DNA of 64,000 nucleotides from a virus. The position numbers and the translations under genes were made by a program. Numbering within the stretch: position 1 is the first letter of the stretch; each line of letters starts with the position of its first letter. The notes below the pieces were generated by a model, which did no database searches, was not told the DNA's origin, and worked only from the letters and a program-made list of their open reading frames with translations. This document shows, in pieces, positions 27,920-60,329 of the stretch. Location: positions 32,001-96,000 of IMG/VR virus record IMGVR_UViG_3300045988_130225. One strand, 5' to 3'.

Positions 27920-28095
27920 ATCAACTCACCGTTACTGAAAACTTATAAAAAGTTATAAACTTTTATGTTTCATTCCTACTTCAACGAGTATGCTTTCATA
28001 ATTATTTCTAATATACTACTCACAAGTTCTTGCACTCTCCATAGGCGTAAATTCCGAACTAACGTATTCGTACATATTTATATCAACCTGAAATG
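27907..28095 (-). ncRNA. putative omega RNA (scaffold plus guide) of TnpB-1
   Basis: ORF-free 3' flank of tnpB up to and just past the inferred right end. Called by analogy with TnpB systems and not folded rigorously. Confidence 0.35.
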
Positions 28096-29410
28096 CTATG
28101 ATACAGATTGATTTAAAACATTTTCTCCATATCTTTTAAGATTTAAAGATGCTTGATAATCTCTGTCAATCATATTACCGCAATCACATTTATAAACACG
28201 GTCTGATAATTTTAAATCTTTTTTAATTTTGCCACAACAACTGCATAATTTAGAACTAGGAAAAAACCTATCAGCAACTATTACAGTAATATTATTCCAT
28301 TTACTTTTATATTTAATTTGCCGTCTAAACTCATAAAATCCTTGCTGTTGTATAGCTTTGGATAAATGTTTATTTTTCATCATACCTTTTACATTCAAAT
28401 CTTCAATACAAATAAAACTTGGTTCTCGCTTTATAATTTCAGAAGTTATTTGATGTAAATAATTCTTGCGAATATTTGTTAGTTTATGATTTACTTTTAA
28501 AAGTTTCTTTTCGCTTTTTACAATGTTACTTGTTTTACAATAACTATCTCCTTTCTTGTTTTTTAAATATTCCCTAGAAACAGAACGCTGTAACCTACGT
28601 TTTTTCTTCTCTAACTGTTTTATCTTTTGTGATTTATTTATATTTTGATATTTATAATTATTAGAACAAATAGCTAAATCTTTAATTCCTAAATCAATAC
28701 CAATTCCTTCTTTATTAGGAATATTTACACTATCTGGATATTCTACACCAACTGTAATCCACCAATTTAATCCGTCAAATTTAATTCTAGGATTATAATA
28801 TTTACAATCTGTCGGTATACGATTACGTTCAGCAAGTCGTATCCAGTTTAATTTCTGCTTATTTTTCTTTTTAGATTTTGTAAATCCTTCAACTTTTACA
28901 TGAGTTTCAGAAAATTGAATTTTTACACTATCTTGGTAAAAGGAGGGTGTAGATTTTTTTCTGTTTTTAAATTTAGGAAAGTTTGTCAAGCCTTTAAAAA
29001 ATTTCTTATAAGCATCACAAGCATCTTTAATAGCTTGTTTTGTGACATTGTTAGAAATATCATTTAACCAGACATATTTCTGTGTATGTTTCATTTTTGT
29101 AAATTCTTTTCGCAAATCCGTATCAGATAGAAATTTACCACCATTTTTATAATTTTCTTGTTCTCTTGCTAATGCCCAGTTATAAGCAAATCGAGCAGTG
29201 TAAGCATACTGAAGCAATTTTGTCTTTTGTTTATTGTTTGGAATTAACATTACTCGAATCGTTTTTAACACATTGTTCGCCACCTTCATCTATAAGTTCT
29301 TTTACAAATTTCTTTGCTTTGTCTTATAAAACTTATAAAAATCAACATTCAATTATAACTTTTTATAAGTTTATAATCATTGTTATTCACCTCTTTCAAC
29401 CAGTGTTACT
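27927..29410 (-). mobile_element. tnpA-less IS200/IS605-type TnpB element 1
   Basis: The left flank AGTAACAGTG (rc of 29411-29420) is repeated as the element end AGTAACGGTG (rc of 27927-27936). A 13-bp perfect subterminal hairpin lies at 29329-29341/29360-29372. The element carries one tnpB ORF. Confidence 0.65.
28096..29289 (-). CDS. tnpB: TnpB RNA-guided nuclease
   Basis: 397 aa. RuvC triad contexts GIDLGIKDL, ICIEDLNVKGM and IDRDYQASLNL, plus zinc finger CSCCGK...CDCGN. Confidence 0.85.
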   Translation of the reverse strand: MKVANNVLKTIRVMLIPNNKQKTKLLQYAYTARFAYNWALAREQENYKNGGKFLSDTDLRKEFTKMKHTQKYVWLNDISNNVTKQAIKDACDAYKKFFKGLTNFPKFKNRKKSTPSFYQDSVKIQFSETHVKVEGFTKSKKKNKQKLNWIRLAERNRIPTDCKYYNPRIKFDGLNWWITVGVEYPDSVNIPNKEGIGIDLGIKDLAICSNNYKYQNINKSQKIKQLEKKKRRLQRSVSREYLKNKKGDSYCKTSNIVKSEKKLLKVNHKLTNIRKNYLHQITSEIIKREPSFICIEDLNVKGMMKNKHLSKAIQQQGFYEFRRQIKYKSKWNNITVIVADRFFPSSKLCSCCGKIKKDLKLSDRVYKCDCGNMIDRDYQASLNLKRYGENVLNQSVS

Positions 29411-34257: not shown

Positions 34258-34344
34258 TTCCTTTCATAAATTAACTTATAACATATTTATATATAAATGT
34301 CAAGTTAAATTATGAAAAGAATTACTTTAGTTTAAATAATATAT

Positions 34345-34778
34345 AAAAACCGTAAGTTACTTTAGTTACGTTTTGAGATTGTCGTTCACATAGGTTCGCT
34401 ACTCCTATGCAGTTCTCCAATGAACTTCTTGTACTTTCATACAAGCACAGACTATATCTTATCCCTCACCATTACGTGTTAGGGTCTACCCACTTCCACA
34501 CGCTTGTGTGTACTTCCCTCAAGAGGAATAGTCGTTGAAGTTTTCCTTTCGGACTTACCTGCTAATTGCCTATTTTTCAGTGTTTAGGATTTAACCATGC
34601 ACCATTCATTCAATTTTTTCTACTTTCGTCACATTCACGCTTATACCCTTTAAGGTATTACGTTGTAGTTTGAATGACTTTAAGGTTTCCTAGCAATTCA
34701 AGTAGTATTGGATGCTAAAAGCATCGCTACGTGCAAGTTTCCCTACACGCTAACTATTTCGTAAAACGTTCGCTTACT
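34345..34778 (-). ncRNA. group I intron ribozyme core
   Basis: The minus-strand RNA contains GGUAGACCCUAACACG...GGGAUAAGAUAUAGUCU (34490-34449). AUAAGAUAUAGUC equals the J8/7-P7 string of the Tetrahymena intron as I recall it. It is followed by P9-like hairpins at 34428-34445 and 34389-34409. The region is ORF-free and GC-richer. Confidence 0.6.
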
Positions 34779-34803
34779 CACGACTAAAGTTATGAATATG
34801 CGT

Positions 34804-36839: not shown

Positions 36840-37598
36840 TTAGACTGTTTTTGAACATTTTTTACAAACTGCAAATAAAGTGTTGTCAACCTTAATAAGT
36901 TTACCGCATTTTGAACACATTGCATACCCCTCTTTGTAAGTCGCAATTAAAAGGTTTCCCAAATTTTCCATTTCACTGATTCTGAAAACTGGTTCCATTC
37001 CCTCATAATCTTCTAACATTTTTACTTTAATGTTCAAGTTATCGCAAGAGTTTGTAACCTCAACTAAACCTTTGTTTTTCAACTCACCAATCAGTTTCAT
37101 GCGTTCAAAAACGGTACAAGCCACATTTGATAGTTCAAACCAATCACCAATGTCTTTTATGGTTTTAAGGTTCAACCAGCCGTTAGCCGCTTTATAATGA
37201 GCCATAACATATGCAGAAAACATCAACTTACGTTCTCGGTCTGTTTCGCCTTTGAATACTTGTGTCATATCCCATGCATAAACATCTATATACCGTATAT
37301 GACTTAAAGATTTAATAACACCATTTCTTAAATTATCATATACATTCATAATCATTTTACGCCATTTTTCATGCACATATTCTTTTTGATAAATTTTAGT
37401 CATTGCGTTTCTTACCAAATCTTCTACATGATGTAACGCATAATCAAACTCTTTATCGGAATAATATTTAATCAGCCATAAGAGAAATTTAAAAAAACCT
37501 ATATCTGGTTTAACAATTTCTTCTGTTTTATCAGAATAAATATTTATTAAAATATCTCTTACATACTGATTTTCATTAAGAATGATTTTGTTTTTCAT
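36840..37598 (-). CDS. hypothetical protein with C-terminal zinc ribbon
   Basis: 252 aa, ending CSKCGKLIKVDNTLFAVCKKCSK. Confidence 0.55.
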   Translation of the reverse strand: MKNKIILNENQYVRDILINIYSDKTEEIVKPDIGFFKFLLWLIKYYSDKEFDYALHHVEDLVRNAMTKIYQKEYVHEKWRKMIMNVYDNLRNGVIKSLSHIRYIDVYAWDMTQVFKGETDRERKLMFSAYVMAHYKAANGWLNLKTIKDIGDWFELSNVACTVFERMKLIGELKNKGLVEVTNSCDNLNIKVKMLEDYEGMEPVFRISEMENLGNLLIATYKEGYAMCSKCGKLIKVDNTLFAVCKKCSKTV

Positions 37599-37636
37599 AT
37601 CTTACACTCCTATTCTATTACATTTTAATTGTTTTG

Positions 37637-40132
37637 TCAACCATTTTCATGTAATTTCTTTAAATTTTCTATTATTAAATCACCGACAACAGCCCAACAA
37701 AAATATTTATTCTTATTCTGTCCATAACATAAGTCAAGCATAATATTAACAAGTCTATCTTTGTTTGGACAAATTTCTTCTGCTCTTGCTCTAAATTCAT
37801 GCTGTATGCTCATAACTCTTGTATTTGCTTCTTCCGTACTTAAATTTTTCTCAATCACAATTTTCTTAAACTGTTTAATACGTTTAATGTATTCTTTTTC
37901 AAGATTTTCAATATCTTCTCTTGTTTTAGGTGAACTTCTTTGAATAGGAGATTTAAGAAATTCATAATTAAAACCCTTGGATTTAAGTTCTACCACTCTG
38001 CCATCAAATTCACTTTCCACATATCGGCAAATTCGGTTCATAGTAGAACCAGAAATGTTTACTGGCATTTTTATATCGTACCATTCTAAAAACTTTTGCT
38101 GTTCTTCTGTAAGATTTTTCTTTTCTTTTAATTCATTTACTTTACAACCATAAAGCATAACACATTTAAGGTCACAATTTTTTATATAACTATCATAATC
38201 TTTTTTTAAAGAAGAATAATTATAAATAAAATAATAAGGCTTTTTATCTGTTACGATTGCTTTATCTAAAGGTGTGGTACACAGCTTTGAAACGTACCAA
38301 TACTTAGGCATTTCCTTACAAATAACTCCCTTCAGTTTGTCCAGAGTTGACTGTTGATATAACTGTCCACACAAAATACGTTTTGATAATTCTTTATATT
38401 CATTTGTATTTTCATTAAATAAAGCTAATTTATCTATTTGTGCCGATACTCTATTAGTGATTGTTCCAACTTCTGAGCCTAAGCCCATACGGTTACTTTT
38501 TCTAATATCGTTTCTTTTAACAATTCTTTTCTCTCCTTTACGTTGTACACAATCAATAGCATTTGTATATTTATAAGCACTTAAAAGTACGTTATTATTA
38601 GTAGAATATATAGAATCACTATCAAAATCGCTCCCGTTCAATGCCATACATATAGTGTCCCAATCATTTAGCACCATCATTGTATTAGAATATTTATACC
38701 ATTCTTGGCATTTTTTATCGTTATTTACTTTCATTTTCCTAATATTATTATGTGAAGTCATAGGAGAACGAAAACAAACTACCTCATTCACACCTTTATC
38801 TATCCAATATTGTGAATATATTTCGTTAGCTTTAAGTAAACCAGTAACCTCTAATCCATATATACTCTGCATTAAAGCATAAGAATCACCCATAACTATC
38901 TGATAATTCCCTTCAACTTTCAGTTTACCTATCTTAGCTTGATTAATCTTTTTCTTAATCATTTTATTGATTCTGTCAATCACATAAGGGTCATTCATCA
39001 TTCTCTCATCTAAATATAAGGCTTGTGCATAATCTTTGGTTTTAGTTTTTTCACCAACACCCAAAAATTCTTTTGTTTTCTGGTAATCACCACCAAACGC
39101 CATTTTCAGCCAATCAACAGTAGGTTTACATAATTCTACAATCTGTTCATCTGTCAATTCATAACTTTGCAAATACTGATAATTTGTTTCTCTTGTATCT
39201 TCCAACTTTTTAGGTGTTACTTTTGTAGCAGAAAACCTATAACCATTTTCATAATAACATTTGTGGTATTCTTCCCAACTAGAATAATTATCCCATAACT
39301 TAAGACTGGATTCAGTAATAATCATATCCACATCTCGAATATCTCTTTCAGTACCCCAAATATCTTTTACTTTATATCCCTTACCAACTTCCTCAGCAAA
39401 TTTTATAATCTCAAAGACATTCAACATACCTTTCATATAAGCATTTCTTAAACAAATACCACTTGGCAAATAATCAAGACCTAATTTATCAGCAACTCTT
39501 TGCATATATTCTGGTGTACAAAGATTCATGCCGTCACTGCCGTTGTTTTCTAACTCTACACCAAATTTTTCCTCAACGATAGGTTCATCTGTTTCACTAT
39601 CATCAATCCTAACCACATCACCCTTAAATTTAGTGATACAATCTCGTACAACCAATACAGAGCGTGGTTCTGGTATCTCAACGGACGCTGAATAGGTCAG
39701 AGCAATATAAGCCTCTAATTTAGCCGGTATAGCCTTGTAATCTTTCTTCCTACCACAATCAGTCCTTTTAATTAACTCTGGTAAAATATCTTCTCTCACA
39801 AACAATAAAGTATTATTTTTAAGACCACCAGTAGTTCCAACAACCCACAAAAACCTTTTACCATTTAAAATCACACCAGTTTTAGACGTAACTTTGTCAT
39901 AGTCACTCATTGAGGAAATCTCCACAGCAAGCATTAAATCCGTCATATCTTGCTTGTATTGTTTGTTACCTATAATTGTAATTAAATCTATCAGTCGAAA
40001 TGCTTGTGAATCAAATAAGTCAATCAATTCATCTAAACGAACCGCCAACTCTTTGGATAAAGTAATTTGCCAGTTGTTTATTCGGAAACGTTCAGATGAA
40101 ACTTTGAAAATCTTTCTACGTTTATTTTGCAT
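37637..40132 (-). CDS. YonO/RdRP-like single-subunit two-barrel RNA polymerase
   Basis: 831 aa. VVCFRSPMTSHNNIRKMKV...MVLNDWDTICMALNGSDFDSDSIYS matches the R.P..H....(30-40 aa)..G.D.DGD catalytic block of cellular RdRPs, QDE-1 and SPbeta YonO. The size is close to YonO. Confidence 0.55.
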   Translation of the reverse strand: MQNKRRKIFKVSSERFRINNWQITLSKELAVRLDELIDLFDSQAFRLIDLITIIGNKQYKQDMTDLMLAVEISSMSDYDKVTSKTGVILNGKRFLWVVGTTGGLKNNTLLFVREDILPELIKRTDCGRKKDYKAIPAKLEAYIALTYSASVEIPEPRSVLVVRDCITKFKGDVVRIDDSETDEPIVEEKFGVELENNGSDGMNLCTPEYMQRVADKLGLDYLPSGICLRNAYMKGMLNVFEIIKFAEEVGKGYKVKDIWGTERDIRDVDMIITESSLKLWDNYSSWEEYHKCYYENGYRFSATKVTPKKLEDTRETNYQYLQSYELTDEQIVELCKPTVDWLKMAFGGDYQKTKEFLGVGEKTKTKDYAQALYLDERMMNDPYVIDRINKMIKKKINQAKIGKLKVEGNYQIVMGDSYALMQSIYGLEVTGLLKANEIYSQYWIDKGVNEVVCFRSPMTSHNNIRKMKVNNDKKCQEWYKYSNTMMVLNDWDTICMALNGSDFDSDSIYSTNNNVLLSAYKYTNAIDCVQRKGEKRIVKRNDIRKSNRMGLGSEVGTITNRVSAQIDKLALFNENTNEYKELSKRILCGQLYQQSTLDKLKGVICKEMPKYWYVSKLCTTPLDKAIVTDKKPYYFIYNYSSLKKDYDSYIKNCDLKCVMLYGCKVNELKEKKNLTEEQQKFLEWYDIKMPVNISGSTMNRICRYVESEFDGRVVELKSKGFNYEFLKSPIQRSSPKTREDIENLEKEYIKRIKQFKKIVIEKNLSTEEANTRVMSIQHEFRARAEEICPNKDRLVNIMLDLCYGQNKNKYFCWAVVGDLIIENLKKLHENG

Positions 40133-42934: not shown

Positions 42935-43597
42935 ATGGAGAAACCGATAAAGAAAATTATTATTATCAACGGCTCTGGTGGAGTTGGTAAGGACGCTTTT
43001 GCTAAAAGAGTTATTGAAGAAACTCTTAAATTGTCGAAACGTATTGTTCCAGTTGAGAATGAAGATTATTGTGTAGACCCAGAAGTTTTTTACAAAAGAA
43101 ATAATATTTCTACTATTGATTGCGTAAAAAATATTGCCAAAATGTTTAACTGGAATGGTGAGAAATCTGAAAAAGACAGAAAAATGTTAAGTGACCTAAA
43201 AGATTTAATGACGGTCTATAATGATTATCCTTTTAAATGTATTACAATACAAATTAGTAATTGGCTACATTGTGTTGGGTGTATGTATGACCATTCATTT
43301 CTTTTTGTACATTGTAGAGAGCCTAAAGAAATTGAAAGAATAAAAAATCAGTTTCCTAATGACACTTTTACTTTATTAGTACAGAATCCTAAAGTTGCAA
43401 AAGTAACTGGTAATCATGCTGATAGAGAAGTTGAAAATTACAATTATGATTTTACTGTAGTTAACGATTCTGACCTTAGAGCATTAAGAAAAGTTGCTAT
43501 TGACTTTTATAAGAAAATCTTTAACCAAGGTTTTACAAAGTATAAGTTTGTTGCTTCTGATTATGATTTCAACCCAGAGGAGAATGGGATATTTTAA
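42935..43597 (+). CDS. P-loop NTPase, dNMP-kinase-like
   Basis: KIIIINGSGGVGKDAF Walker A at the N-terminus, 220 aa, with the overall layout of phage nucleotide kinases. Confidence 0.45.
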   Translation: MEKPIKKIIIINGSGGVGKDAFAKRVIEETLKLSKRIVPVENEDYCVDPEVFYKRNNISTIDCVKNIAKMFNWNGEKSEKDRKMLSDLKDLMTVYNDYPFKCITIQISNWLHCVGCMYDHSFLFVHCREPKEIERIKNQFPNDTFTLLVQNPKVAKVTGNHADREVENYNYDFTVVNDSDLRALRKVAIDFYKKIFNQGFTKYKFVASDYDFNPEENGIF

Positions 43598-43601
43598 AAA
43601 A

Positions 43602-44537
43602 ATGATAGAAATTGGTAGGACTTATCGTTATAAAGAACTTTGTGAAGCTATAGGAAAAAATAATGTTATAGGGTCTTATAAAACAACCTTACTTAAAAGT
43701 ATTTATAAGAATTATGAGGTAGTTCATAAAAACGGCTTTTATAAAATCATAAGAGAATATTCACAACAAGAAAAAGATGCAAAAGAAATTAAAGGAATGT
43801 ATCAAAAACTGCTTGAAGCTATATTAAGTAATTTTTTATCTCAACAAGACAATTATTCAGTCTGTACCTCAATGATGGAATTACTTTTAGCTTGTGGGAT
43901 TATTAATACAGATTTTAAATACTGTAGGTATAATATTGATTCTTCATCTAAAATACTTAAAAGTGACCCTTATGACTTAGAAGAATATATCACAAAATCT
44001 TATAATCTTCTTAGCCGAATGTTTAAAGATATTCTTGACCAACTTGAAAATAAAGCTTTAATCAAATGTCGAAAAGGTTACAAGCTGTTCAAAGTTAATA
44101 ACATGGGGTTACAAAGTGGTAGCAAGGTGATAACTCTTGGCTCAAAAGAGGAAACGATAATTATTAAGGCTGAGGAAGAAGGACTTAAGGAAATGGGTCT
44201 TACTAAGCTATTTGAAGTATATAGAAATGAAATTAGTATTGAAACATTTAAAAAAATCACAAACAGAAAGATAAAAGAACAGTTTCCAGATTATGACGGT
44301 TATTACAAAGTATATCATATCACTTTAAATCGTACAGGACTTTGGGAGAACAAGAATAATATCTATAAAGAACTTAATAAAAAAATTCAAACCAAGTTAT
44401 TAAAAAATAAAGGTTTATCTGAAATAACGCAATTAAAGAAAATGGTAGACGCTACAATTAATTTGTCCAGACCATTTAAAATACAAGAAAATTTAAAGCT
44501 TATGAAAAAGTTGGAAGGAGAAAATAACAATGAGTGA
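43602..44537 (+). CDS. early protein, paralog family A
   Basis: ORF track 43494..44537. Start at MIEIGRTYRYKELC. Collinear similarity to 41776..42789. Confidence 0.6.
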   Translation: MIEIGRTYRYKELCEAIGKNNVIGSYKTTLLKSIYKNYEVVHKNGFYKIIREYSQQEKDAKEIKGMYQKLLEAILSNFLSQQDNYSVCTSMMELLLACGIINTDFKYCRYNIDSSSKILKSDPYDLEEYITKSYNLLSRMFKDILDQLENKALIKCRKGYKLFKVNNMGLQSGSKVITLGSKEETIIIKAEEEGLKEMGLTKLFEVYRNEISIETFKKITNRKIKEQFPDYDGYYKVYHITLNRTGLWENKNNIYKELNKKIQTKLLKNKGLSEITQLKKMVDATINLSRPFKIQENLKLMKKLEGENNNE

Positions 44538-45810: not shown

Positions 45811-45984
45811 ATGTTAAAAGCAAAATTTGAAAAATATTTAGGAAAACACATATCAATTAGATTATTTGATGGTAACGTTTATACTGGATATTTATACAAG
45901 TCTGGAAATAAAGAACGCTTTCCAAATGACCCTAACTTATATGTACCAAGAAATTATTATTTTTTAATAGGAGAATGGTTATGA
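45811..45984 (+). CDS. 57-aa hypothetical protein
   Basis: Hand-found ORF MLKAKFEKYLGKHISIRLFDGNVYTGYLYK..., tightly coupled to neighbours. Confidence 0.4.
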   Translation: MLKAKFEKYLGKHISIRLFDGNVYTGYLYKSGNKERFPNDPNLYVPRNYYFLIGEWL

Positions 45985-46259
45985 AAGAATTAAAAGAAAC
46001 AATGGAAATGATGAACAGTGAAAATTATAAAGAAAGATTTAAAGCTGAATATTGGCAGACTTATATTAGATATGAAAAATTAACAAAAATGGTTGAAAAC
46101 TGGGAGAAAGGTGAATTAAATTTTACACCTACTTGTGATAAAAAAATATATAAGATACAGTTACTTCATATGGCTAACTATCTTAGTATTCTTAGAGTAA
46201 GAGCAAAGATTGAAAACGTAGATTTAGGAATTGAGGAAGAAAATGAAAAAGACTGTTAA
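45981..46259 (+). CDS. hypothetical protein
   Basis: ORF track 45975..46259. The second ATG is better spaced from the GGAG RBS. Confidence 0.55.
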   Translation: MKELKETMEMMNSENYKERFKAEYWQTYIRYEKLTKMVENWEKGELNFTPTCDKKIYKIQLLHMANYLSILRVRAKIENVDLGIEEENEKDC

Positions 46260-46530
46260 TAATTCTACAAAGTTAAGTCAAGAAGAATTTGTTTCGTTTA
46301 GTAAAAGAATGATTCAAAGATACTATACAGAATTGTTTGGTGGCAATACAGTATCATCTGATGAAATATTTTTAGTATGGTATTGTAAGACTTTACAGAA
46401 TCATAAGGCGTTACTGGGTGTTATTGGTCGGTATGATGAATATTTTGAAGCTACCTATGACGGTGATAATAATAAAGTTTATCTGGACGTATATAAGAAA
46501 GATAAGAATATTATAGTTGAACCGATATGA
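46243..46530 (+). CDS. hypothetical protein
   Basis: ORF track 46231..46530. Start at MKKTVNN after a GAGGAAG RBS. Confidence 0.55.
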   Translation: MKKTVNNSTKLSQEEFVSFSKRMIQRYYTELFGGNTVSSDEIFLVWYCKTLQNHKALLGVIGRYDEYFEATYDGDNNKVYLDVYKKDKNIIVEPI

Positions 46531-46577
46531 ATTGAATAAAAAAGAATAAAAAGTTTTAAAATTTTTTAAAAAAGTTC

Positions 46578-46606
46578 TTGACGGATTAAGGATTATATAG
46601 TATAGT
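46578..46606 (+). promoter_or_regulatory. sigma-A-type promoter
   Basis: TTGACG, 17 nt, then TATAGT. The upstream A/T tract is homologous to the promoter at 46955. Confidence 0.6.
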
Positions 46607-46653: not shown

Positions 46654-46902
46654 ATGGAGAGTTTAGCAATGAATTTAACAGATGCACAGAAGAGAGCAGT
46701 AGAGTTAAAAGATGAAATTATTAAAATTTGTGAAGAAAAGAAGTTAATTCTGGTTGCTCCTAAAGAGGGAATTGGTTTTTATGATTTAGAGTCAAAGGAA
46801 CTGGTTGCTATTTGGTCTGATAGTAAAGCCAATGAAGAAACAAAACCAGTTGATGAAGATAGCGAAGCACCAGAAGCACCGGAAATTCCAGAACAGGAAT
46901 AA
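46654..46902 (+). CDS. hypothetical acidic protein
   Basis: 82 aa with an AAGGAG RBS. Confidence 0.55.
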   Translation: MESLAMNLTDAQKRAVELKDEIIKICEEKKLILVAPKEGIGFYDLESKELVAIWSDSKANEETKPVDEDSEAPEAPEIPEQE

Positions 46903-46954
46903 ACCATTATGATCAAGGACTTAATAAAAATAATTAAAAATTTTTAAAAAGTCC

Positions 46955-46983
46955 TTGACTTATCTAATAAAATATGTTATAGT
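46955..46983 (+). promoter_or_regulatory. sigma-A-type promoter driving the ncRNA-tRNA unit
   Basis: TTGACT, 17 nt, then TGtTATAGT. Confidence 0.65.
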
Positions 46984-46989
46984 ATATAC

Positions 46990-47719
46990 ATAGCAAACAA
47001 GAGAACAAGTAAATGAGTAAACGTAATTAATTATTTAGTCGAAAGTTTACAGAGTTTGACAGTTGCTAAAATAACTAAATTTATAGGTTTGGCATGAGGA
47101 AGAGTTATTGTGTAACAAGGGCCGTCGAATGTAATTAAAATCTACGGAGAACAAACTCCGGTAAAAGCCCTGCGTATGAAAGTGGTGTATATCTTTTTTG
47201 TTAGGTTCAGCTTTTGCCTAAATCGTGTGTAGACGAAGAAAAGATATATAAAAGCAAAAATAGGTTTTTTCTCTGAATCATGTTAAATCGGCGGTTGGTT
47301 GGTTATTAAGTGTAAGCGCAAACACGTAATAACGCAACATGATGTGTCACTACTCACAACCGCTTTTGGTATGCTATCCACACATACCAAAGCCTCCTAA
47401 TTCGCAATACAAAAGATTAATTTTCTCCTTTTTGACTAGTAACTTTTCTGGTAGATGGACGTGAATAGTCAAAGGTGGCAACTTGTTTTATCGAGGAATA
47501 AGTTGCCACATACATAGTAATTGAAAACTGAATATTTGAGATTACTAAAAAATCCGTTAATAATGAAAATGCTAAGTATTCATAGATACGATAAATATTT
47601 AGCTTAAAATGTTATTAAAAACCTACTCTGTAGAGATATAAACCATGGCAGTGAGAACGTATCTAGTCTGTGATTACAGAATATTATCCTTTGGTAGCGG
47701 TTGAGGGGATATTAATTAA
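46990..47719 (+). ncRNA. large structured non-coding RNA candidate (ROOL/GOLLD-like context)
   Basis: No ORF >=60 aa on either strand, a promoter upstream and a tRNA immediately downstream. At least eight perfect 5-10 bp helices were paired by eye (listed in findings). Confidence 0.5.
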
Positions 47720-47790
47720 AGGGCATTAGCCAAGCGGAAAGGCAAAACACTTTGACTGTTTCATGCGTAGGTCCGAATCCTACATGCCCT
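47720..47790 (+). tRNA. tRNA-Gln (anticodon UUG)
   Basis: Hand-folded cloverleaf: acceptor AGGGCAT/ATGCCCT, D stem GCC/GGC, anticodon stem AAACA/TGTTT with loop CTTTGAC, T stem GTAGG/CCTAC with loop TCCGAAT. CCA is not encoded. Confidence 0.85.
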
Positions 47791-47821
47791 GTTTATAAAA
47801 ATAAATGTTTGGTGATTAAAA

Positions 47822-48570
47822 ATGAATACTAATATTAAATATTATGAACGTAAAGTTCCAATAGTTGATACTTATTCTGTTAAAGAATTAGAAGAAATTG
47901 TGAAAAATTCATATTCTTTTAAAGAAGTAATTTTAAAATTGGGGTATAAAACGCAGAATGGAAGTAATATAAAAACAGTAAGAAACAGATTAGAAAACTT
48001 AAACATTGATTATAGTCATTTTGCTTCTACTATGCAAATAAAAAGAACCTATGAAAATGTATTTTGTAAAAATAGTACAACTACACAGCATGTTTTAAGA
48101 CGGTGGTATAAGAAAATAAGTAATGATAATATTTGTACTATTTGCAGACAGGATAAAATCTGGAATAATAAAGAATTGACTATGATTTTAGACCACATTG
48201 ATGGCAACAATCATAACAATGTAACTTCAAATCTACGGTGGATTTGTCCTAATTGCAACAGTCAGTTGCCTACATTTGCAGGCAGAAATTTAAGATTAGA
48301 AATGTAAAGTTAAAACATACAAGAGAAAAGAAAATTTGTCCTATTTGCAACAAAAATATCCTTTCTAACAGTGATAATAAAATGTGTATTGATTGCTACA
48401 AAAATTATCAATCCAGAAATATTCCTGCTAAAGAAGAGTTAGAAAAATTAATTTATAATACGCCTTTTGTAAAAATTGGTAAAAAATACGGGGTATCAGA
48501 TAACGCTGTAAGAAATTGGTGTAAGAAATACGGCTTACCTTATAAATATAATGATTTACACAAAAGATAA
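47822..48570 (+). pseudogene. HNH homing endonuclease split by a frameshift
   Basis: ORF 47822..48307 carries ILDHIDGNNHNNVTSNLRWICPNCNSQ (HNH). ORF 48253..48570, in another frame, carries the usual C-terminal CPICNK...CIDC zinc finger and the KYGVSDNAVRNWCKKYGLP HTH. The frames switch near 48283-48292. Confidence 0.7.
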
Positions 48571-48675
48571 TTAATTTATTATGTTTAAGTCTTGTTGGAA
48601 AGAATTAGTAGATATTATAGGTAATCTATTAAACAATGCAAGTTCAACTCTTGCACCTAAATTTTTATCATAAAC

Positions 48676-48748
48676 GGAACAATATTTCAACTGGTTAGAA
48701 AGTTCGGCTCATAACCGAAAAGTTATAGGTTCGAGTCCTATTTGTTCC
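48676..48748 (+). tRNA. tRNA-Met/Ile2 type (anticodon CAU), elongator-like
   Basis: Acceptor GGAACAA/TTGTTCC, D stem TTTC/GAAA, anticodon stem TTCGG/CCGAA with loop CTCATAA, T stem ATAGG/CCTAT with loop TTCGAGT. Confidence 0.85.
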
Positions 48749-48854
48749 ATTAGAAGAATAATCAATATTGCACACCATCACCTTATAATTATAATGACGT
48801 TCCCCCTAAAATAACGTTTATTACTGCAATATTAATTGTTCTTCACAATACAAA

Positions 48855-48912
48855 ACAGTAATACAGTATAACAACTCCCACCACCAATGTTTATGCTGTA
48901 TTACTGTTTTTT
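48855..48912 (+). terminator. terminator-like long hairpin
   Basis: 12-bp stem ACAGTAATACAG/CTGTATTACTGT with a 29-nt loop, followed by TTTTTT. Confidence 0.45.
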
Positions 48913-48921
48913 ATAGAACAG

Positions 48922-50169
48922 TAAGCCAAAAACCCCCATTAGCTTTAGCTGATGGGAAGAATAGTGGAGAACAATTAACTGAGAGTGAGGTGATTATAGA
49001 TGTTGGTAGCATACAAATACAGATTGTATCCGAATAAAGAACAACAAGAATATTTTGCTAAATGTTTTGGGTGTGTACGATTTATCTATAATCGTATGCT
49101 TTCAGATAAGATTGACTATTATAAAGAAACAAAGAAAAAGCTGAATAATACACCTGCTCAGTACAAGAAAAAGTTTGAGTGGCTAAAAGAAGTAGATTCA
49201 CTTGCATTAGCAAATGCTCAAATGAATTTGCAGACAGCCTATAACAATTTTTTCAAACGTCCAGAAGTGGGTTTTCCAAAATTCAAAAGCAAGAAGAATA
49301 ATCACTTCTCTTATACTACAAATAATCAGGGAGGAAACATTTATGTGACAGACCGATACATAAAACTCCCTAAGATTGGACTTGTTAGAGTTCGGAAACA
49401 TAGAGATTTTGAAGGATTAATTAAGTCTGTTACTATTTCTAAAAGTCCGTCTGGTAAATACTTTGTTTCAGTATTAGTAGACCAAAAAGATAAAGAAAAA
49501 TTAATTCCAAACAATAACCAAATTGGAATTGATTTAGGTATTAAAGAATTTTGTATTACTTCTGATGAAGAGATGATTCAAAATCCAAAGTTTCTTAGAA
49601 AGTCTGAAAAGAAATTAAGAAAATTACAAAAGGATTTATCTCGTTGTCAAAAAGAAAGTAAAAATAGAGAAAAATGCAGAATTAAAGTCGCAAGACAACA
49701 TGAAAAGATTGCAAATCAACGTAAAGATTTTCTACATAAGTTATCTAGGCGATTTATTGATGAAAACCAAATCATTGCATTAGAAACTTTGAAAATTAAA
49801 AATATGATGAGTAATCATAAATTAGCAAAATCAATAGCAGATGTATCATGGTCTGAATTTGTAAGACAATTAGAGTATAAGGCTCAGTGGTATGGTAGAG
49901 AAATCGTAAGGATTGATACTTGGTATCCATCAAGTCAGATATGCTCTAATTGTGGTCACAAAGACAGAAGAAAGCCATTATCAGTAAGAGAATGGATCTG
50001 TCCTAATTGTGGTACACATCATGAAAGGGATATAAATGCAGCTATAAATATTCTTAAAGAAGGTTTGAGAATTAAAACGGCAGGAACTGTCGAGATAGTC
50101 TAAGTAAACTTGTGCGGTTACGCATATTGATTAGAAAATCCAATGAGTTTTAACTCATGGGTAGTTCAG
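48922..50169 (+). mobile_element. tnpA-less IS200/IS605-type TnpB element 3
   Basis: Matching 22-nt subterminal hairpins at 48935-48956 (CCCATTAGCTTTAGCTGATGGG) and 50140-50161 (CCAATGAGTTTTAACTCATGGG). The left flank TAGAACAG resembles the element end TAGTTCAG. Confidence 0.6.
49000..50103 (+). CDS. tnpB: TnpB RNA-guided nuclease
   Basis: 367 aa. [21 protein letters not shown] and [11 protein letters not shown], plus CSNCGH...CPNCGT. Confidence 0.85.
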
Positions 50170-50190
50170 AGGTAAGTTAATGAGTAGATG
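50104..50190 (+). ncRNA. putative omega RNA 3' part and guide of TnpB-3
   Basis: Right-end hairpin followed by flank AGGTAAGTTAATGAGTAGATG. The scaffold probably extends back into the tnpB 3' end. Confidence 0.35.
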
Positions 50191-50215
50191 TAGAGGTAAG
50201 TTAATGAGTAGATGT
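50168..50215 (+). repeat. perfect 24-bp tandem duplication (2 copies)
   Basis: AGAGGTAAGTTAATGAGTAGATGT occurs at 50168-50191 and again at 50192-50215, directly abutting the TnpB-3 right end. Each copy contains an RBS plus ATG. Confidence 0.95.
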
Positions 50216-50557
50216 AATTGTCAGCATTGTGATGCTTATATCAACATTCCAATAAACTGGTTCACAATGTATTTCTATGAGGACTTAACAAGATGTTGGA
50301 TTTTTTGGCATATGAAAATGAATCATGATTTTCAGAGTACAGAAGATAATTGGTTTACTTTTGTATTAAGATTTATTGGGTTAATGTTAAAATTTGATTT
50401 AGCTTGTGTGTTGATTTCAGTGAAGATTGTGCTGACACCATTTTTAATGTTGGATAAATTTTTATTCTTTGACGCTAGAAGAGATATGGATTTTGAATAT
50501 TTGGATAGTGATGAAGTTGAGGAAGATGAAGATAAAAGTGAGGATAAGGAGAATTAA
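50180..50557 (+). CDS. hypothetical membrane protein with acidic tail
   Basis: 125 aa. The N-terminus MSRCRGKLMSRC reflects the 24-bp duplication, so the alternative start 50204 is equally good. Confidence 0.5.
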   Translation: MSRCRGKLMSRCNCQHCDAYINIPINWFTMYFYEDLTRCWIFWHMKMNHDFQSTEDNWFTFVLRFIGLMLKFDLACVLISVKIVLTPFLMLDKFLFFDARRDMDFEYLDSDEVEEDEDKSEDKEN

Positions 50558-53118: not shown

Positions 53119-53134
53119 CACGTTCACATTTTTA

Positions 53135-53176
53135 AACCCCTTAGTAACACAAAGTACAAGGGGTTCTTTTTTATTT
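53135..53176 (+). terminator. rho-independent terminator
   Basis: AACCCCTT/AAGGGGTT 8-bp stem followed by CTTTTTTATTTT. Confidence 0.7.
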
Positions 53177-53590
53177 TCAACCAAGTTATCACATTCAGAA
53201 CAAAATTCCCCTATATCTACTTTCTACGGACTGTTACCACCCTAAATCAGAATAAATCCCCCTAACTCAGAGCACGAGATTTCGCCCTATATTGCAAAAC
53301 ACTACATGAAGCCCAAGGGAGTAATTATTTGCAATGTCCTATAAATTGGACACCTAAAACACTAATGAAAATCATTTAAGACTTGAAGCATTGCAATTCG
53401 CCCACTCGAAAACGCCTACGCAAAAACCATTACTTTTCGACTATAGGGGGTCAAGGCACTTTTCGCCAATAGTTCTTTTTAGAACCATTTTTCCGTTATT
53501 CATAAATTTTAATAACGAACAGTGAAATGACAAAACACCTGTCTTTACAACTGACAAGACAACTGACAAGACATTTCTTAATTTTCCACT
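53177..53590 (-). ncRNA. candidate leftward non-coding transcript
   Basis: Lies downstream of a minus-strand copy of the conserved early promoter -10 block. It has no ORF >20 aa by hand scan and runs into the hairpin at 53135-53176. Confidence 0.3.
53547..53573. repeat. tandem 12-nt repeat ACAACTGACAAG x2 (+ACA)
   Basis: Read directly from the sequence. Confidence 0.9.
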
Positions 53591-53598
53591 ATGGTTAT

Positions 53599-53627
53599 GA
53601 TATACCACTCTCCCCTAAATTTAACTA
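53599..53627 (-). promoter_or_regulatory. early-family promoter copy pointing left
   Basis: The minus strand reads GTGGTATATCATAACCATAG, against GTGGTATATTATAACCAT(A/G) at 57999, 60443 and 60812. The -35 is weak (TAGTTA). Confidence 0.45.
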
Positions 53628-53817
53628 CCTGTGGTCACTCTTATATACCGTTACAACTCATTTAAACGCCCCTAGAAACGATTTTAATAGATAAGACGAT
53701 TAAGTTATCATACGCAGACTAAAACGCCCACATTTGCCTTGTACTGTTTCATATAAAAAGTGACACCTTATCATGCTCCTAAAACCTCTACAGAAATAAT
53801 AGTCAAAATTTAAACCA

Positions 53818-53831
53818 GTATACCGGTATAC
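53818..53831. repeat. perfect 14-bp palindrome GTATACCGGTATAC
   Basis: Self-reverse-complementary. Confidence 0.95.
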
Positions 53832-53878
53832 GGCGAATGACCCCCTTGTTCCCCAGTATACAATTACCCCCCTCTATC

Positions 53879-53894
53879 AGATAATATATTATCT
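53879..53894. repeat. perfect 16-bp palindrome AGATAATATATTATCT
   Basis: Self-reverse-complementary. Confidence 0.95.
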
Positions 53895-54120
53895 ATTGTA
53901 AAGAGTAGATGACTAAGAGATAGAACTACAAGAATTATAAGAATAGATAAGAGATAAGAGGATTGAGAACTGGATAATATGTTGGTTATTACATACTCGT
54001 AAATGTTGCAAAATCCCTATTCTGTGTTATCACCTACACCTATAAAACCACTAGGCATAAAGAGCAAAATGATACACACATTTTCGTCATATATATCTTA
54101 AATACTCTTAGACGATTTAC

Positions 54121-54515
54121 TGTGTGCTATTGTTGTGAGAAATGATATGAAAAGTATAGGTGGTTAAGGTGGTGTGAAAATGGTCTGGGATAGGTATGGG
54201 GAATTTGGTTATCGTGCGTGTGCGTTATATATAATTATATATAGTGGGAGTTAATAAGTAGGAAACGGTGAAGTGATGAGAGATGAAAAACTAAGGATTG
54301 ATATGAACATAAGGATTTAGGAATATAGAGGGCAGAAGGATATATAAGGATATATGATATAAGGTGAGAGTGGGCGTGAGTGGGTGCGGAGATAATGATG
54401 ATAGTTGGGATAGAGCAATAGCAATGGGGGATAGGGGGTAACAGGAGCAATAGATAGAGAGATAATTGAAATACTATGAATATTGGGTGAATATTGAGTT
54501 GTGGGAGTGTGCGGT
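54121..54515. other. C-depleted (G/A/T) arm
   Basis: By hand count there are about 18 C in about 395 nt on the plus strand, while G is abundant. GGGATAG/GGATAT motifs recur. Confidence 0.85.
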
Positions 54516-54699
54516 GTATCAGCTATTCCGAGTATGCGAAAATCGTATATACGAATTGTCTGAAAATACCCCGGTTATACGTGACTAACAGAATGAGTGT
54601 TCGACTAGCCCAGAGGAGGGGGCGATATACTCTGCCTGCATAGGTTCGGAACGTCAAAAAACATGGCTATAATAAATCATTATAGACACGTTTTGCATG

Positions 54700-54717
54700 T
54701 TATCAATATATTGATAA
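54700..54717. repeat. perfect 18-bp palindrome TTATCAATATATTGATAA
   Basis: Self-reverse-complementary. It lies in the compositionally balanced core between the two skewed arms. Confidence 0.95.
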
Positions 54718-54861
54718 TACTATACGTTCAAAACTAATGGTTTTTATTGATACTTGAACACTTTTAACGTGATTGATATATTGGAAGTATTATATTATGT
54801 TAAAAAAATGACGTAATAAGAAGGTACTATATATGTGATACCGCATACCATTAGCTAAGTT

Positions 54862-55342
54862 ATCTTCCTTTATGTTTCTTCTTTCCCCTCTTCTCTTCAT
54901 ACGCTCTCAATAGTCCGCATGAAACATTGTATATACTTATTATATCTATATTATTCCATCATCCTCTTTCTCCATCTTCCCATATCCTACTATACCATCT
55001 TCCATTCTTTCACCTATCAACCCACTTTCCATCCGTTCATATATCCCACTTATACCAGATCCATTTCAATTCCATTTCCATTTCCACCTGTCATCATTCC
55101 CCACACTTCCACATCTTACAATTAATCCCATGTCTTATCATATCTCATATCACATCTTCTGTTATCTCATACCACCGCACAACATACCCATACCATCTTA
55201 CATAGTAACAATAACCACATACATAGTATTCAATACTACTTGTAATCTTACTCATATCCCATATCATGTTTTACAATACTATCTCATATCCCTATTAATC
55301 CACTATGTTAATATGTTACCCATAAACCCATTATCCATATAG
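54862..55342. other. G-depleted (C/A/T) arm
   Basis: By hand count there are about 18 G in about 480 nt on the plus strand, while C is abundant. ATATCCC/CCATCTTCC motifs recur. Confidence 0.85.
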
Positions 55343-59105: not shown

Positions 59106-60329
59106 ATGTATACAATCGCAAATGCACAGTGGTCATTCAAAAAAATCGCACAGGAGATTAAAAAAGGAAACATTGACTTTAAATGCGGAGGCGTTCAAAG
59201 AGGGGACGTTTGGGATAATGCAAGACGTTCTTTACTTATCCAGTCTGGATTAAAAGGAGATATTATTCCTTGTCTTTATATCCGCAGAAATGGAGAAAAT
59301 AAAGATAAATACGAAATGCGTGACGGCAGACAGCGTTGCACAACTTTAGCAAAATTCATTAATGATGGTTTTGTAACTTCTGGTATTCCAGAATATGAAG
59401 ATGGGGATAAATTAGATTATCGTATTTGCAGGAATGGTGAAATGGTATCAGCAAACGGTATTAGTTTTGAAAGTCTTTCAGATGATGAAAAAATGGATTT
59501 TCTTACAAGAAATATTACAGTTTATTATATTGACGGTGCAACGGATGCAGAAGCCGATATGATTTTTTTGAAACTTAACAACGGAAAAGCATTGACTACA
59601 GCAGAAAGAAACAGAGCAGAAGCAAAATCAAGAAGTGAAATCATTGATATTGCTAACCATAATATTTTCAAGTTGATGTTTAGTGAAAAAACGTTAGATA
59701 ATAACGCTTTTGATACCGTTGTAAAATCTTATATCATGTTAAATAATGATAATCCGTCATTGCTTAACAAAGACGTTAAACCGTTGATGAAATCTATTGA
59801 TATTACAGAAGAAGACAAAAAACAGCTTACAGCAGTATTTGATTACATTCTGGAAGTTTATAATCTTTTGGAAACAAAGAAAGTTAAGAAAAGAATCATT
59901 GGAAAGACTAGCTTTTTATCTTTAATTCCAGTTGCAGAACAAGCATTAAATGATGGAAAGATAGCAGAAGAGTTTGCAAGCTTTCTGGATAAATTTTTCT
60001 CTGGAAAGACAACAAAGGAACCAACAATCAGTAAGACTTATAACGATAACTTCTTCGATTCTTCCGCAAGTCGTATGAAGATTAGATTACGCCACAATGC
60101 ATTAATGAATGAATATGAAAAAATGTTCAATGGTGAAACTGAAAATATATATAGCGAAAATGCAGAGGATTTACAGGAGGAGATTGACGAAGCGGAAACA
60201 GTAGAGGATTATATTAGTATTGACGAATTAAGCAAGCCAGATACAGATGAAGAAGTAACAGTAACAGAAGATTCTACACCAGAAGAACATATAGAGGAAC
60301 AGCAGACAGAAGATATAGAAGAATTTTAA
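59106..60329 (+). CDS. DUF262 (ParB/GmrSD N-terminal nuclease-like) protein with acidic C-terminal tail
   Basis: MRDGRQRCTTL matches the DGQQR(L/I)T(T/S)L signature of DUF262. The last ~70 aa are E/D-rich. Confidence 0.65.
   Translation: MYTIANAQWSFKKIAQEIKKGNIDFKCGGVQRGDVWDNARRSLLIQSGLKGDIIPCLYIRRNGENKDKYEMRDGRQRCTTLAKFINDGFVTSGIPEYEDGDKLDYRICRNGEMVSANGISFESLSDDEKMDFLTRNITVYYIDGATDAEADMIFLKLNNGKALTTAERNRAEAKSRSEIIDIANHNIFKLMFSEKTLDNNAFDTVVKSYIMLNNDNPSLLNKDVKPLMKSIDITEEDKKQLTAVFDYILEVYNLLETKKVKKRIIGKTSFLSLIPVAEQALNDGKIAEEFASFLDKFFSGKTTKEPTISKTYNDNFFDSSASRMKIRLRHNALMNEYEKMFNGETENIYSENAEDLQEEIDEAETVEDYISIDELSKPDTDEEVTVTEDSTPEEHIEEQQTEDIEEF

Follow-up and report, generated by a model that had tools for sequence, protein, structure and literature searches.

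The Locus and the Element

The 64,000-nt stretch of viral DNA considered here (the window) spans positions 32,001 to 96,000 of the IMG/VR virus record IMGVR_UViG_3300045988_130225, and it carries, on its plus strand, an element of ~727 nt situated between a promoter and a tRNA-Gln gene. The element is probably a structured non-coding RNA, having a conserved secondary structure with compensatory substitutions above control levels. The window itself is of phage origin: it encodes a portal, tail proteins, methyltransferases, two TnpB genes, and an HNH endonuclease, and its portal is 74% identical to those of ~100-kb Enterocloster bolteae phages. Homologous or related loci compared with the window are designated by L-numbers (L001, L107, L127, etc.). 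The features of the element and its borders, all on the plus strand, are given below in window coordinates; z-scores compare predicted folds with those of shuffled sequences.

46942..46983, plus strand: promoter cassette (AAAAAGTCCTTGAC), with a -35 hexamer TTGACT (46955-46960), a 17-nt spacer, and TATAGT (46978-46983)
46991..47068, plus strand: domain 1, a nested hairpin at the 5′ end; weak, dispensable or variable
47086..47289, plus strand: domain 2, multi-branch (fold z = -3.2), with closing helix 47086-47097/47278-47289, hairpin 47145-49/47156-60, and a long stem (47188-47200/47237-47250) that ends in a three-way junction (arms 47203-06/47216-19 and 47223-26/47233-36)
47290..47364, plus strand: domain 3a, a three-way-junction core with apical loop AAGCGCAA (47314-47321)
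47365..47391, plus strand: domain 3b, a 9-bp hairpin whose stem is kept and whose loop varies
47392..47514, plus strand: domain 4a, a variable expansion region with hairpins 47431-38/47466-73 and 47475-84/47500-09
47393-47398, plus strand: CCUCCU, part of the linker that follows domain 3b; the same sequence as the anti-Shine-Dalgarno core of 16S rRNA
47420-47434, plus strand: AUUUUCUCCUUUUUG, an exact complement of the phage's generic ribosome-binding site
47515..47716, plus strand: domain 4b, the 3′ domain, with hairpin 47515-22/47540-47 and a long hairpin (47557-64/47611-18) enclosing 47571-80/47594-47603
47720-47791, plus strand: tRNA-Gln(UUG), found by both ARAGORN and Rfam

The promoter, described in the original prediction of this RNA as near-consensus, matches the consensus at 10 of 12 positions, and a TG at 46975-46976 gives it an extended -10 region. 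Judged from sequence and a consensus scan, it is predicted to be a strong, sigma-70-type, early-type promoter, with the transcription start of the element near 46990. The cassette is kept across all homologues. In the window, the arrangement AAAAAGTYCTTGAC-N17-TATAGT is present in two copies, at 46565-46606 and 46942-46983, with an 82-aa open reading frame (ORF) between them. This ORF is missing from L001, L107, and L102, as if it had been deleted via recombination between the cassette repeats, and in these loci the upstream cassette is joined to the element at the same position, indicating that the element begins at the transcription start. A candidate internal promoter at 47536-47564 was rejected because its -10 is lost in relatives.

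At the other end, the element stops 3 nt short of tRNA-Gln, similarity among relatives ends 3-7 nt ahead of the tRNA, and a tRNA lies within a few nucleotides 3′ of the element in every family member. This downstream tRNA is tRNA-Gln(UUG), with the exception of L127, where a tRNA-Ser and then a tRNA-Gln are found instead. Three sequence types, ~50% identical to one another, are represented among the tRNA-Gln genes that follow the element, and the anticodon is always UUG. A tRNA-Met, also called by ARAGORN and Rfam, follows at 48676-48749. Neither a plus-strand terminator nor a conserved promoter was found between the element and the tRNA by consensus scanning and homologue alignment, from which we infer that the tRNA must be transcribed through the element. 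It is proposed that tRNA-Gln would serve as a 3′-end-forming signal, with RNase P cutting at the 5′ end of the tRNA.

As a side observation on these tRNAs, one tRNA-Gln(UUG) type of 78-80 nt (L081, 6070-6147; L128, 3700-3778; L127, 3095-3174) has a long U-rich variable region (GACAUUUUUUCGGGG), which is atypical for tRNA-Gln.

The ~730 nt leading to tRNA-Gln at 47720 had been predicted to contain no ORF of at least 60 aa. In fact, none of even at least 45 aa is present on either strand of 46917-47821. No ORF is conserved across homologues; the alleles differ in their small ORFs, and indels whose lengths are not multiples of three (1, 2, 4, and 5 nt) are common among them. Moreover, a collection of 15 billion proteins includes none of the eight internal ORFs among its called proteins, whereas the neighboring 82-aa ORF is found there with 59 cluster members. 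A protein-coding gene or pseudogene was therefore rejected on the grounds that no reading frame is kept, indels break the frame, and no protein is called. The G+C content does rise above that of the flanks, but only modestly, to 0.34-0.385 over 47000-47500 relative to 0.22-0.31 in the flanks and 0.314 in the window, whereas the 3′ 200 nt of the element reach only 0.29.

Predicted Fold and Domain Architecture

The plus strand of the whole element has a minimum free energy (MFE) of -176.9 kcal/mol, as compared to -151.3 ± 7.8 kcal/mol for dinucleotide shuffles (z = -3.3), while the minus strand gives a weaker z of -1.4. Seven helices that had been paired by eye (47145-49/47156-60, 47188-97/47239-48, 47291-97/47357-63, 47302-08/47327-33, 47365-73/47383-91, 47431-38/47466-73, and 47475-84/47500-09) are all exact complements at those coordinates, and all fall within the MFE fold. 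The accompanying claim that stems are denser than expected by chance is borne out both by the whole plus strand and by three of its domains, with z-scores ranging from -3.2 for domain 2 to -3.8 for domain 3 (47290-47391) and -3.9 for domain 4 as a whole (47392-47716), all calculated for the plus strand. The predicted fold consists of four or five self-contained domains, and no supported helix links them.

Conservation differs considerably from one domain to the next. Domain 1 is shortened or replaced in L102, L090, L136, L134, and L127. Domain 2 exists as at least four alleles that are 75-87% identical, each of which folds separately to the same architecture. Domain 3a is the best-conserved part of the family and is present in every member, including L127, the most divergent. 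At the position of domain 3b, L127 possesses a hairpin of wholly different sequence, and L107, L129, and L134 have an extended or extra hairpin. These same three loci, together with L127, share a different insert in domain 4a (GUCGGAACGGAUGUU). Finally, domain 4b is identical in 16 of 18 close relatives and terminates in CCUUUGGUAGCGGUUGAGGGGAUAU (with GAGGGG at 47703-47708) followed by an A/U tail; in L128 and L136, its long hairpin has been swapped for a different hairpin in the same place.

Covariation

The proposal that covariation across homologues would support the fold was examined with two alignments. The first (A4) contains 18 close sequences and has an RNAalifold structure of 205 pairs, of which 15 changed on both sides; column shuffles gave 1.7 ± 1.2 (0/500), and sliding the 3′ partners gave 1-4. 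In this alignment, 98.5% of cells are paired. The second (A5) contains 15 more diverse sequences and 159 pairs. Here, 32 pairs changed on both sides versus 10.9 ± 2.3 in shuffles (0/500) and 4-13 with slid partners, and 95.9% of cells are paired. Compensatory changes are thus well above both kinds of control.

Support is distributed over several domains. In domain 2, it includes the closing helix (47086-97/47278-89), the hairpin at 47145-60, the stem at 47188-47250, and both junction arms. Domain 3a shows five compensatory pairs versus 1.2 ± 0.9 in shuffles (0/500) and 0-1 with slid partners; it is invariant among close relatives, and these pairs come from L127 and L134. Hairpin 47475-47509 has four compensatory pairs in A5, with a G-C to A-U change in four sequences. 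In domain 4b, the long hairpin at 47571-47603 is supported, and compensatory changes occur in L090, L107, L129, and L134. Two compensatory pairs are seen in helix 3 of domain 1 in A5; the domain was nonetheless counted as lacking covariation support. Polymorphisms in paired columns are G-U-compatible in 42 cases and A-C-compatible in 10, an excess that fits an RNA read from the plus strand.

Homologues and Distribution

Approximately 25 distinct element sequences were collected, ranging from near-identical to the window through to L127, where a profile search recognizes no more than domain 3a and the 3′ part of domain 2 (nhmmer E = 2e-12). Sources of copies include five IMG/VR contigs, six metagenome contigs, and an 85.8-kb contig binned into a metagenome-assembled genome labeled “Bacilli”. 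Further copies were obtained from contigs carrying variants of neighboring proteins, namely, the 82-aa ORF (46654-46902), a 125-aa ORF (50180-50557), and the DUF6275 protein (46231-46530). All copies have the same order of promoter cassette, element, and tRNA, and domain order and adjacency are fixed in all members except L127. All homologues belong to one lineage of ~85-110-kb gut phages related to Enterocloster phages.

Searches outside this lineage were negative. Near and distant DNA searches of INPHARED phages gave no homologue of the element, only tRNA-Gln matches, and the second genome half of Enterocloster phage PMBT24 had no tRNA, Rfam, profile, or covariance-model match. The nhmmer element profile found no match in 79 IMG/VR loci with ~40%-identical DUF6275 genes. 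Several of these distant loci have ORF-free gaps and tRNAs after DUF6275, in which neither Rfam nor a covariance model of the core junction (R1) found anything. Four further exact-pattern scans of IMG/VR, employing conserved blocks of 18-21 nt from three domains, yielded no contig beyond the five already known, and a scan of GTDB gave one real match and nine chance matches. The 82-aa neighbor protein had no tblastn match in phages.

Within the lineage, domains recombine as modules. For example, domain 2 of L102 is just 75% identical to that of the window, with domains 3-4 being identical, and L107 combines window-like domains 1-3a with a different domain 4. In domains 3-4, the window shares 99-100% identity with L096, L102, and L120, while DNA identity in the adjacent 82-aa gene is only 86-90%. 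Such high identity of domains 3-4 may result from either strong constraint or allele sweeps through recombination.

Comparison with Known RNA Families

The original prediction held that the size and context of the element fit large phage RNAs of the GOLLD type, and that the element could be ROOL, GOLLD, or a new class. The former is accurate: the element is ~727 nt long, resides in a phage genome, and lies 3 nt from tRNA-Gln. As to the latter, only the new class stands. Searches were conducted with cmscan and the 4227 models of Rfam 15 at gathering score and then, for 46800-47900, with relaxed filters and E ≤ 10. At gathering score, the whole window produced only the two tRNAs and an unrelated RAGATH-18 RNA elsewhere, and 14 related loci produced tRNAs only. 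At E ≤ 10, the tRNA was the sole match in 46800-47900, with no ROOL, GOLLD, HEARO, transfer-messenger RNA (tmRNA), or intron among the results, and L107, L103, L123, and L090 gave only chance-level microRNA- or snoRNA-type matches far below gathering scores. ARAGORN found no tmRNA. As far as covariance models tell, ROOL, GOLLD, HEARO, OLE, raiA, introns, tmRNA, RNase P RNA, 6S RNA, T-box, and riboswitches are therefore excluded.

GOLLD is a large phage and prophage RNA of Firmicutes that occurs next to tRNA genes, sometimes with tRNAs within or beside it (PMC12286853). Like GOLLD (RF01998), the element is >700 nt long, protein-free, phage-borne, adjacent to a tRNA, and unevenly conserved, a context that is insufficient for membership. 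It lacks a match to the GOLLD covariance model, with its conserved 3′ domain, and it has a different domain layout and a much narrower distribution, limited to one phage lineage. ROOL is a multi-junction RNA of ~580 nt found in phages and prophages, often near tRNA islands, with no known protein partner (PMC5737381, PMC12286853). The element resembles ROOL (RF03087) in being a large multi-junction phage RNA near a tRNA. It differs in having no match to the ROOL model, which comprises six multistem junctions as well as three pseudoknots, whereas no pseudoknots were identified in the element; in being physically joined to the tRNA (3-7 nt gap); and in possessing its own strong predicted promoter. 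Neither family has any detectable sequence or fold in common with the element, and the likeness is one of size, phage origin, and tRNA adjacency only.

Other large RNAs offer partial parallels. HEARO and the omega RNAs of IscB and TnpB are large structured RNAs associated with nucleases of mobile elements, and two TnpB genes and an HNH gene are present in the window. The element is not located at a tnpB 3′ end, unlike omega RNAs, and has no HEARO model match. Identity as a TnpB omega RNA or a HEARO-like partner of HNH was rejected, as the element also occurs in L081, L129, and L134, where no HNH or TnpB gene adjoins it. No tandem or direct repeats of the kind found in ToxI-like arrays were detected in the element.

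In phage T4, the stable RNAs of the tRNA cluster (species 1 and 2; rnaC/rnaD) are cut from a tRNA precursor by tRNA-processing enzymes. The element would share with these the trait of a non-tRNA RNA co-transcribed with phage tRNAs. The T4 species are ~120-140 nt long and lie downstream of tRNAs, whereas the element is 5-6 times larger, multi-domain, and upstream. A eukaryotic analogy is provided by MALAT1/mascRNA, in which RNase P forms the 3′ end of a long non-coding RNA by cutting at an adjoining tRNA-like structure. The tRNA-like part of MALAT1 is not a functional tRNA, whereas the element adjoins a real tRNA-Gln at which processing is presumed, so the comparison is an analogy only.

Conserved Sequence Motifs

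No aligned member departs from the CCUCCU motif, not even L107 and L127, whose flanking sequences have diverged. It is predicted to be mostly unpaired in L128, L090, L136, and L127 and, in other members, to pair with the 3′ GAGGGG; an internal GGAGG with which it could pair is lacking from L127. Its sequence prompts the guess that the motif may pair with Shine-Dalgarno sequences or mimic the 3′ end of 16S rRNA. The second pyrimidine motif, AUUUUCUCCUUUUUG, matches the reverse complement of ribosome-binding-site regions, including those of the ORFs with starts at 59106 and 60875. It is kept in all members except L127, and is retained in L107, L129, and L134 at a flank identity of ~50-60%. Thermodynamic folds pair either CCUCCU or AUUUUCUCCUUUUUG with the GAGGGG at 47703-47708.

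In the apical loop of domain 3a, most members have GCGC, and L082, L083, and L136 have the palindrome UGUACA. GOLLD and ROOL form homo-oligomeric, RNA-only nanocages in which molecules meet through kissing loops, and GOLLD is induced during lysis. In OLE and GOLLD, it was by switches from one palindrome to another that symmetric kissing loops between molecules were recognized (PMC12286853). The domain 3a switch faintly hints at a kissing loop and is a lead only, resting as it does on one evolutionary event; by a rough estimate, the count of palindromic tetranucleotides in hairpin loops is not above chance. A UCGA/UGCA switch in the loop at 47490-47494 was dropped as a lead because it is not kept in L129 and L134.

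Genomic Neighborhood

The genes that surround the element and its tRNAs are as follows.

45975-46259: PF21825 gene (crAss001_48, “Sequestin”), two genes upstream of the element
46231-46530: DUF6275 gene, after the Sequestin gene
47822-48307 and 48253-48570: HNH homing endonuclease, split into overlapping ORFs, between tRNA-Gln and tRNA-Met
49000-50103, plus strand: TnpB, after the tRNAs; no RAGATH-18-type match beside it

PF21825 Sequestin has been shown experimentally to sequester the Thoeris signal 3′cADPR (bioRxiv 10.1101/2025.07.12.664507). Since the Sequestin gene lies upstream and the order Sequestin-DUF6275-element-tRNA is kept in relatives, the region of the element can be regarded as an early, anti-defense-type neighborhood.

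Genes downstream of tRNA-Gln are less constant. In the examined relatives without HNH (e.g., L081, L082, L096, and L129), the two tRNAs are ~100-200 nt apart. Carriers of HNH have a different tRNA-Gln sequence type, which suggests homing with co-conversion of the flank. HNH and TnpB are each present in some relatives and absent from others, and hence neither is a partner of the RNA.

Several further stretches of these genomes lack sizeable ORFs or contain structured RNAs of other kinds. The RAGATH-18 RNA of the window (27973-28045, minus strand; Rfam, 70.6 bits) lies ~50 nt 3′ of the stop codon of the other TnpB gene (phrog_506, 28096-29289, minus strand), the place where the scaffold of a TnpB guide (omega RNA/reRNA) is expected. 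In the structural gene block, a 534-nt ORF-free gap at 34258-34791 (G+C content 0.35) folds on the coding (minus) strand with z = -4.3 (0/40) and has no Rfam match at gathering score; judging by this predicted fold, it is possibly a second structured RNA. The ~1.8 kb at 53119-54918 contain only tiny ORFs, and 53119-53700 fold well on the minus strand (z = -3.4), the neighbors being on the plus strand. In PMBT24 (L126), the nearest cultured phage, three stretches annotated with only tiny opposite-strand ORFs (37131-38100, 43553-44273, and 48189-49441) are likely non-coding, and in them no tRNA, Rfam match, or similarity to the element was found. Long ORF-poor stretches of 1.1-3.2 kb also occur downstream of the tRNA region in L128 (5602-8828), L081 (7705-8900), and L084 (6392-7505), with those of L081 and L084 giving only tRNA matches at Rfam gathering score.

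Interpretation

Taken together, the sequence comparisons indicate that the element probably represents a new, lineage-specific family of multi-domain structured non-coding RNAs, ~500-830 nt in length, in ~100-kb gut phages of the Bacillota. A number of observations weigh against this conclusion. The domain 1 region (46990-47085) folds no better than shuffled sequences (z = -1.0), and no pseudoknots or tertiary contacts were established in the predicted fold of the element. The helix closing domain 4 is ambiguous, as either CCUCC or UCUCCUU may pair with GAGGGG, and it shows mismatches without compensation in L128 and L134. A good many helices, notably 47515-47547, are the same in all sequences, and both this helix and the one closing domain 4 are without covariation support. 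In addition, the sequences on which the structures were tested had also served to predict them, a partial circularity that is addressed by the slid and shuffle controls. The relatives are mosaic recombinants of a few alleles per domain and the sequences are not independent; the family is restricted to one phage lineage, so divergence is limited; and recent recombination, rather than selection, could account for the very high identity of domains 3-4.

If the element is such an RNA, it would be transcribed on the plus strand from a strong sigma-70-type early promoter as a precursor continuing into tRNA-Gln and probably tRNA-Met. RNase P would then cut at the 5′ end of the tRNA to give the RNA a defined 3′ end, and the released molecule might act as a stable RNA itself, as with GOLLD and ROOL, rather than as a spacer. 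At a guess, its likeliest functional surface would be the invariant CCUCCU plus the three-way-junction core, in contact with Shine-Dalgarno sequences or the translation machinery. A bolder and unlikely version of this account, put forward as speculation, is that the family is a third independent invention of the GOLLD/ROOL type: an abundant RNA-only particle, self-associating via the palindromic domain 3a loop, whose exposed CCUCCU would capture Shine-Dalgarno sequences or components of the 30S platform and redirect early translation, with the linked tRNA serving as the 3′-end signal.

Other readings of the locus differ chiefly in what the RNA would do after transcription. The structured 730 nt could be a cis-acting leader that only controls the amount, timing, or processing of the downstream tRNAs, perhaps as an attenuator, a stability element, or a scaffold for processing, and is discarded after RNase P cleavage. 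We consider this unlikely. The invariant link to the tRNA, the lack of a separate tRNA promoter, and the retention of anticodon identity while the tRNA-Gln sequence type turns over are all in keeping with a leader. However, a length of 500-830 nt, a conserved junction, invariant single-stranded motifs, and compensatory changes in four domains exceed the needs of known tRNA leaders. Furthermore, there is neither a terminator/antiterminator alternative before the tRNA nor a T-box or riboswitch model match, and L127 retains the element despite the tRNA-Ser inserted between it and tRNA-Gln. It is decidedly unlikely that the element is instead a counter-defense RNA, i.e., an early decoy or inhibitor of a host immune system, such as an RNA- or tRNA-targeting nuclease, encoded alongside other anti-defense genes and replacement tRNAs. 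The Sequestin gene two genes upstream, also found in relatives, and the early-type promoter would suit this role, as would the domain-by-domain shuffling of alleles, which is common in arms-race loci. This support is from context alone, though. The element has no ToxI-type repeat array or similarity to a known RNA decoy, and domains 3-4, being deeply conserved, point to a target that is likewise conserved rather than fast-changing. The beads-on-a-string predicted fold, independent recombination of domains, and resemblance of the two pyrimidine motifs to seeds of Firmicute small RNAs could also be explained by a string of separate small RNAs or hairpins from one transcript, the small RNAs pairing with ribosome-binding sites through C/U-rich seeds. 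That arrangement is quite improbable given that there are no conserved internal promoters or terminators (the loss of the -10 in the 47536-47564 site being an example) and that the order and adjacency of domains are fixed outside of L127; tertiary contacts among the domains may also exist.

Two additional readings are contradicted by the model searches and by strand-specific covariation. It is very improbable that the element is a highly divergent GOLLD or ROOL missed by the Rfam models. Its size, phage origin, and tRNA adjacency are similar, and close relatives differ less in its 3′ part than in its 5′ part, a pattern also seen in GOLLD (PMC12286853), yet no match emerged from the window and four divergent homologues at E ≤ 10 with relaxed filters, or from 14 loci at gathering score. 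Hardly tenable is the suggestion that the locus works at the DNA level, as an origin or a site of packaging or recombination, or that it is a decayed gene, the hairpins having no RNA function in either case. The region is a hot spot of recombination, having mosaic alleles and lying near a homing endonuclease and TnpB, as might be expected of such a site; on the other hand, the strand asymmetry of the fold, the 42-to-10 excess of G-U over A-C, the compensatory changes, the fixed frame of promoter and tRNA, and the absence of a reading-frame trace in any allele all speak for an RNA.

Significance

To our knowledge, RNAs >500 nt with a conserved complex fold are very rare in bacteria and phages. 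As a probable new family, the element would be a further large phage RNA, unrelated to GOLLD and ROOL in sequence, that occupies the same niche in phage genomes beside tRNAs. It is also tractable, with a defined promoter, a 3′ end probably set by the tRNA, natural domain-swap alleles, and an invariant anti-Shine-Dalgarno-like motif, and it is a good candidate for RNA-only cryo-electron microscopy. Lastly, the element lies beside a known anti-defense gene in phages of abundant human-gut Clostridia, the nearest cultured relatives of which infect Enterocloster bolteae.

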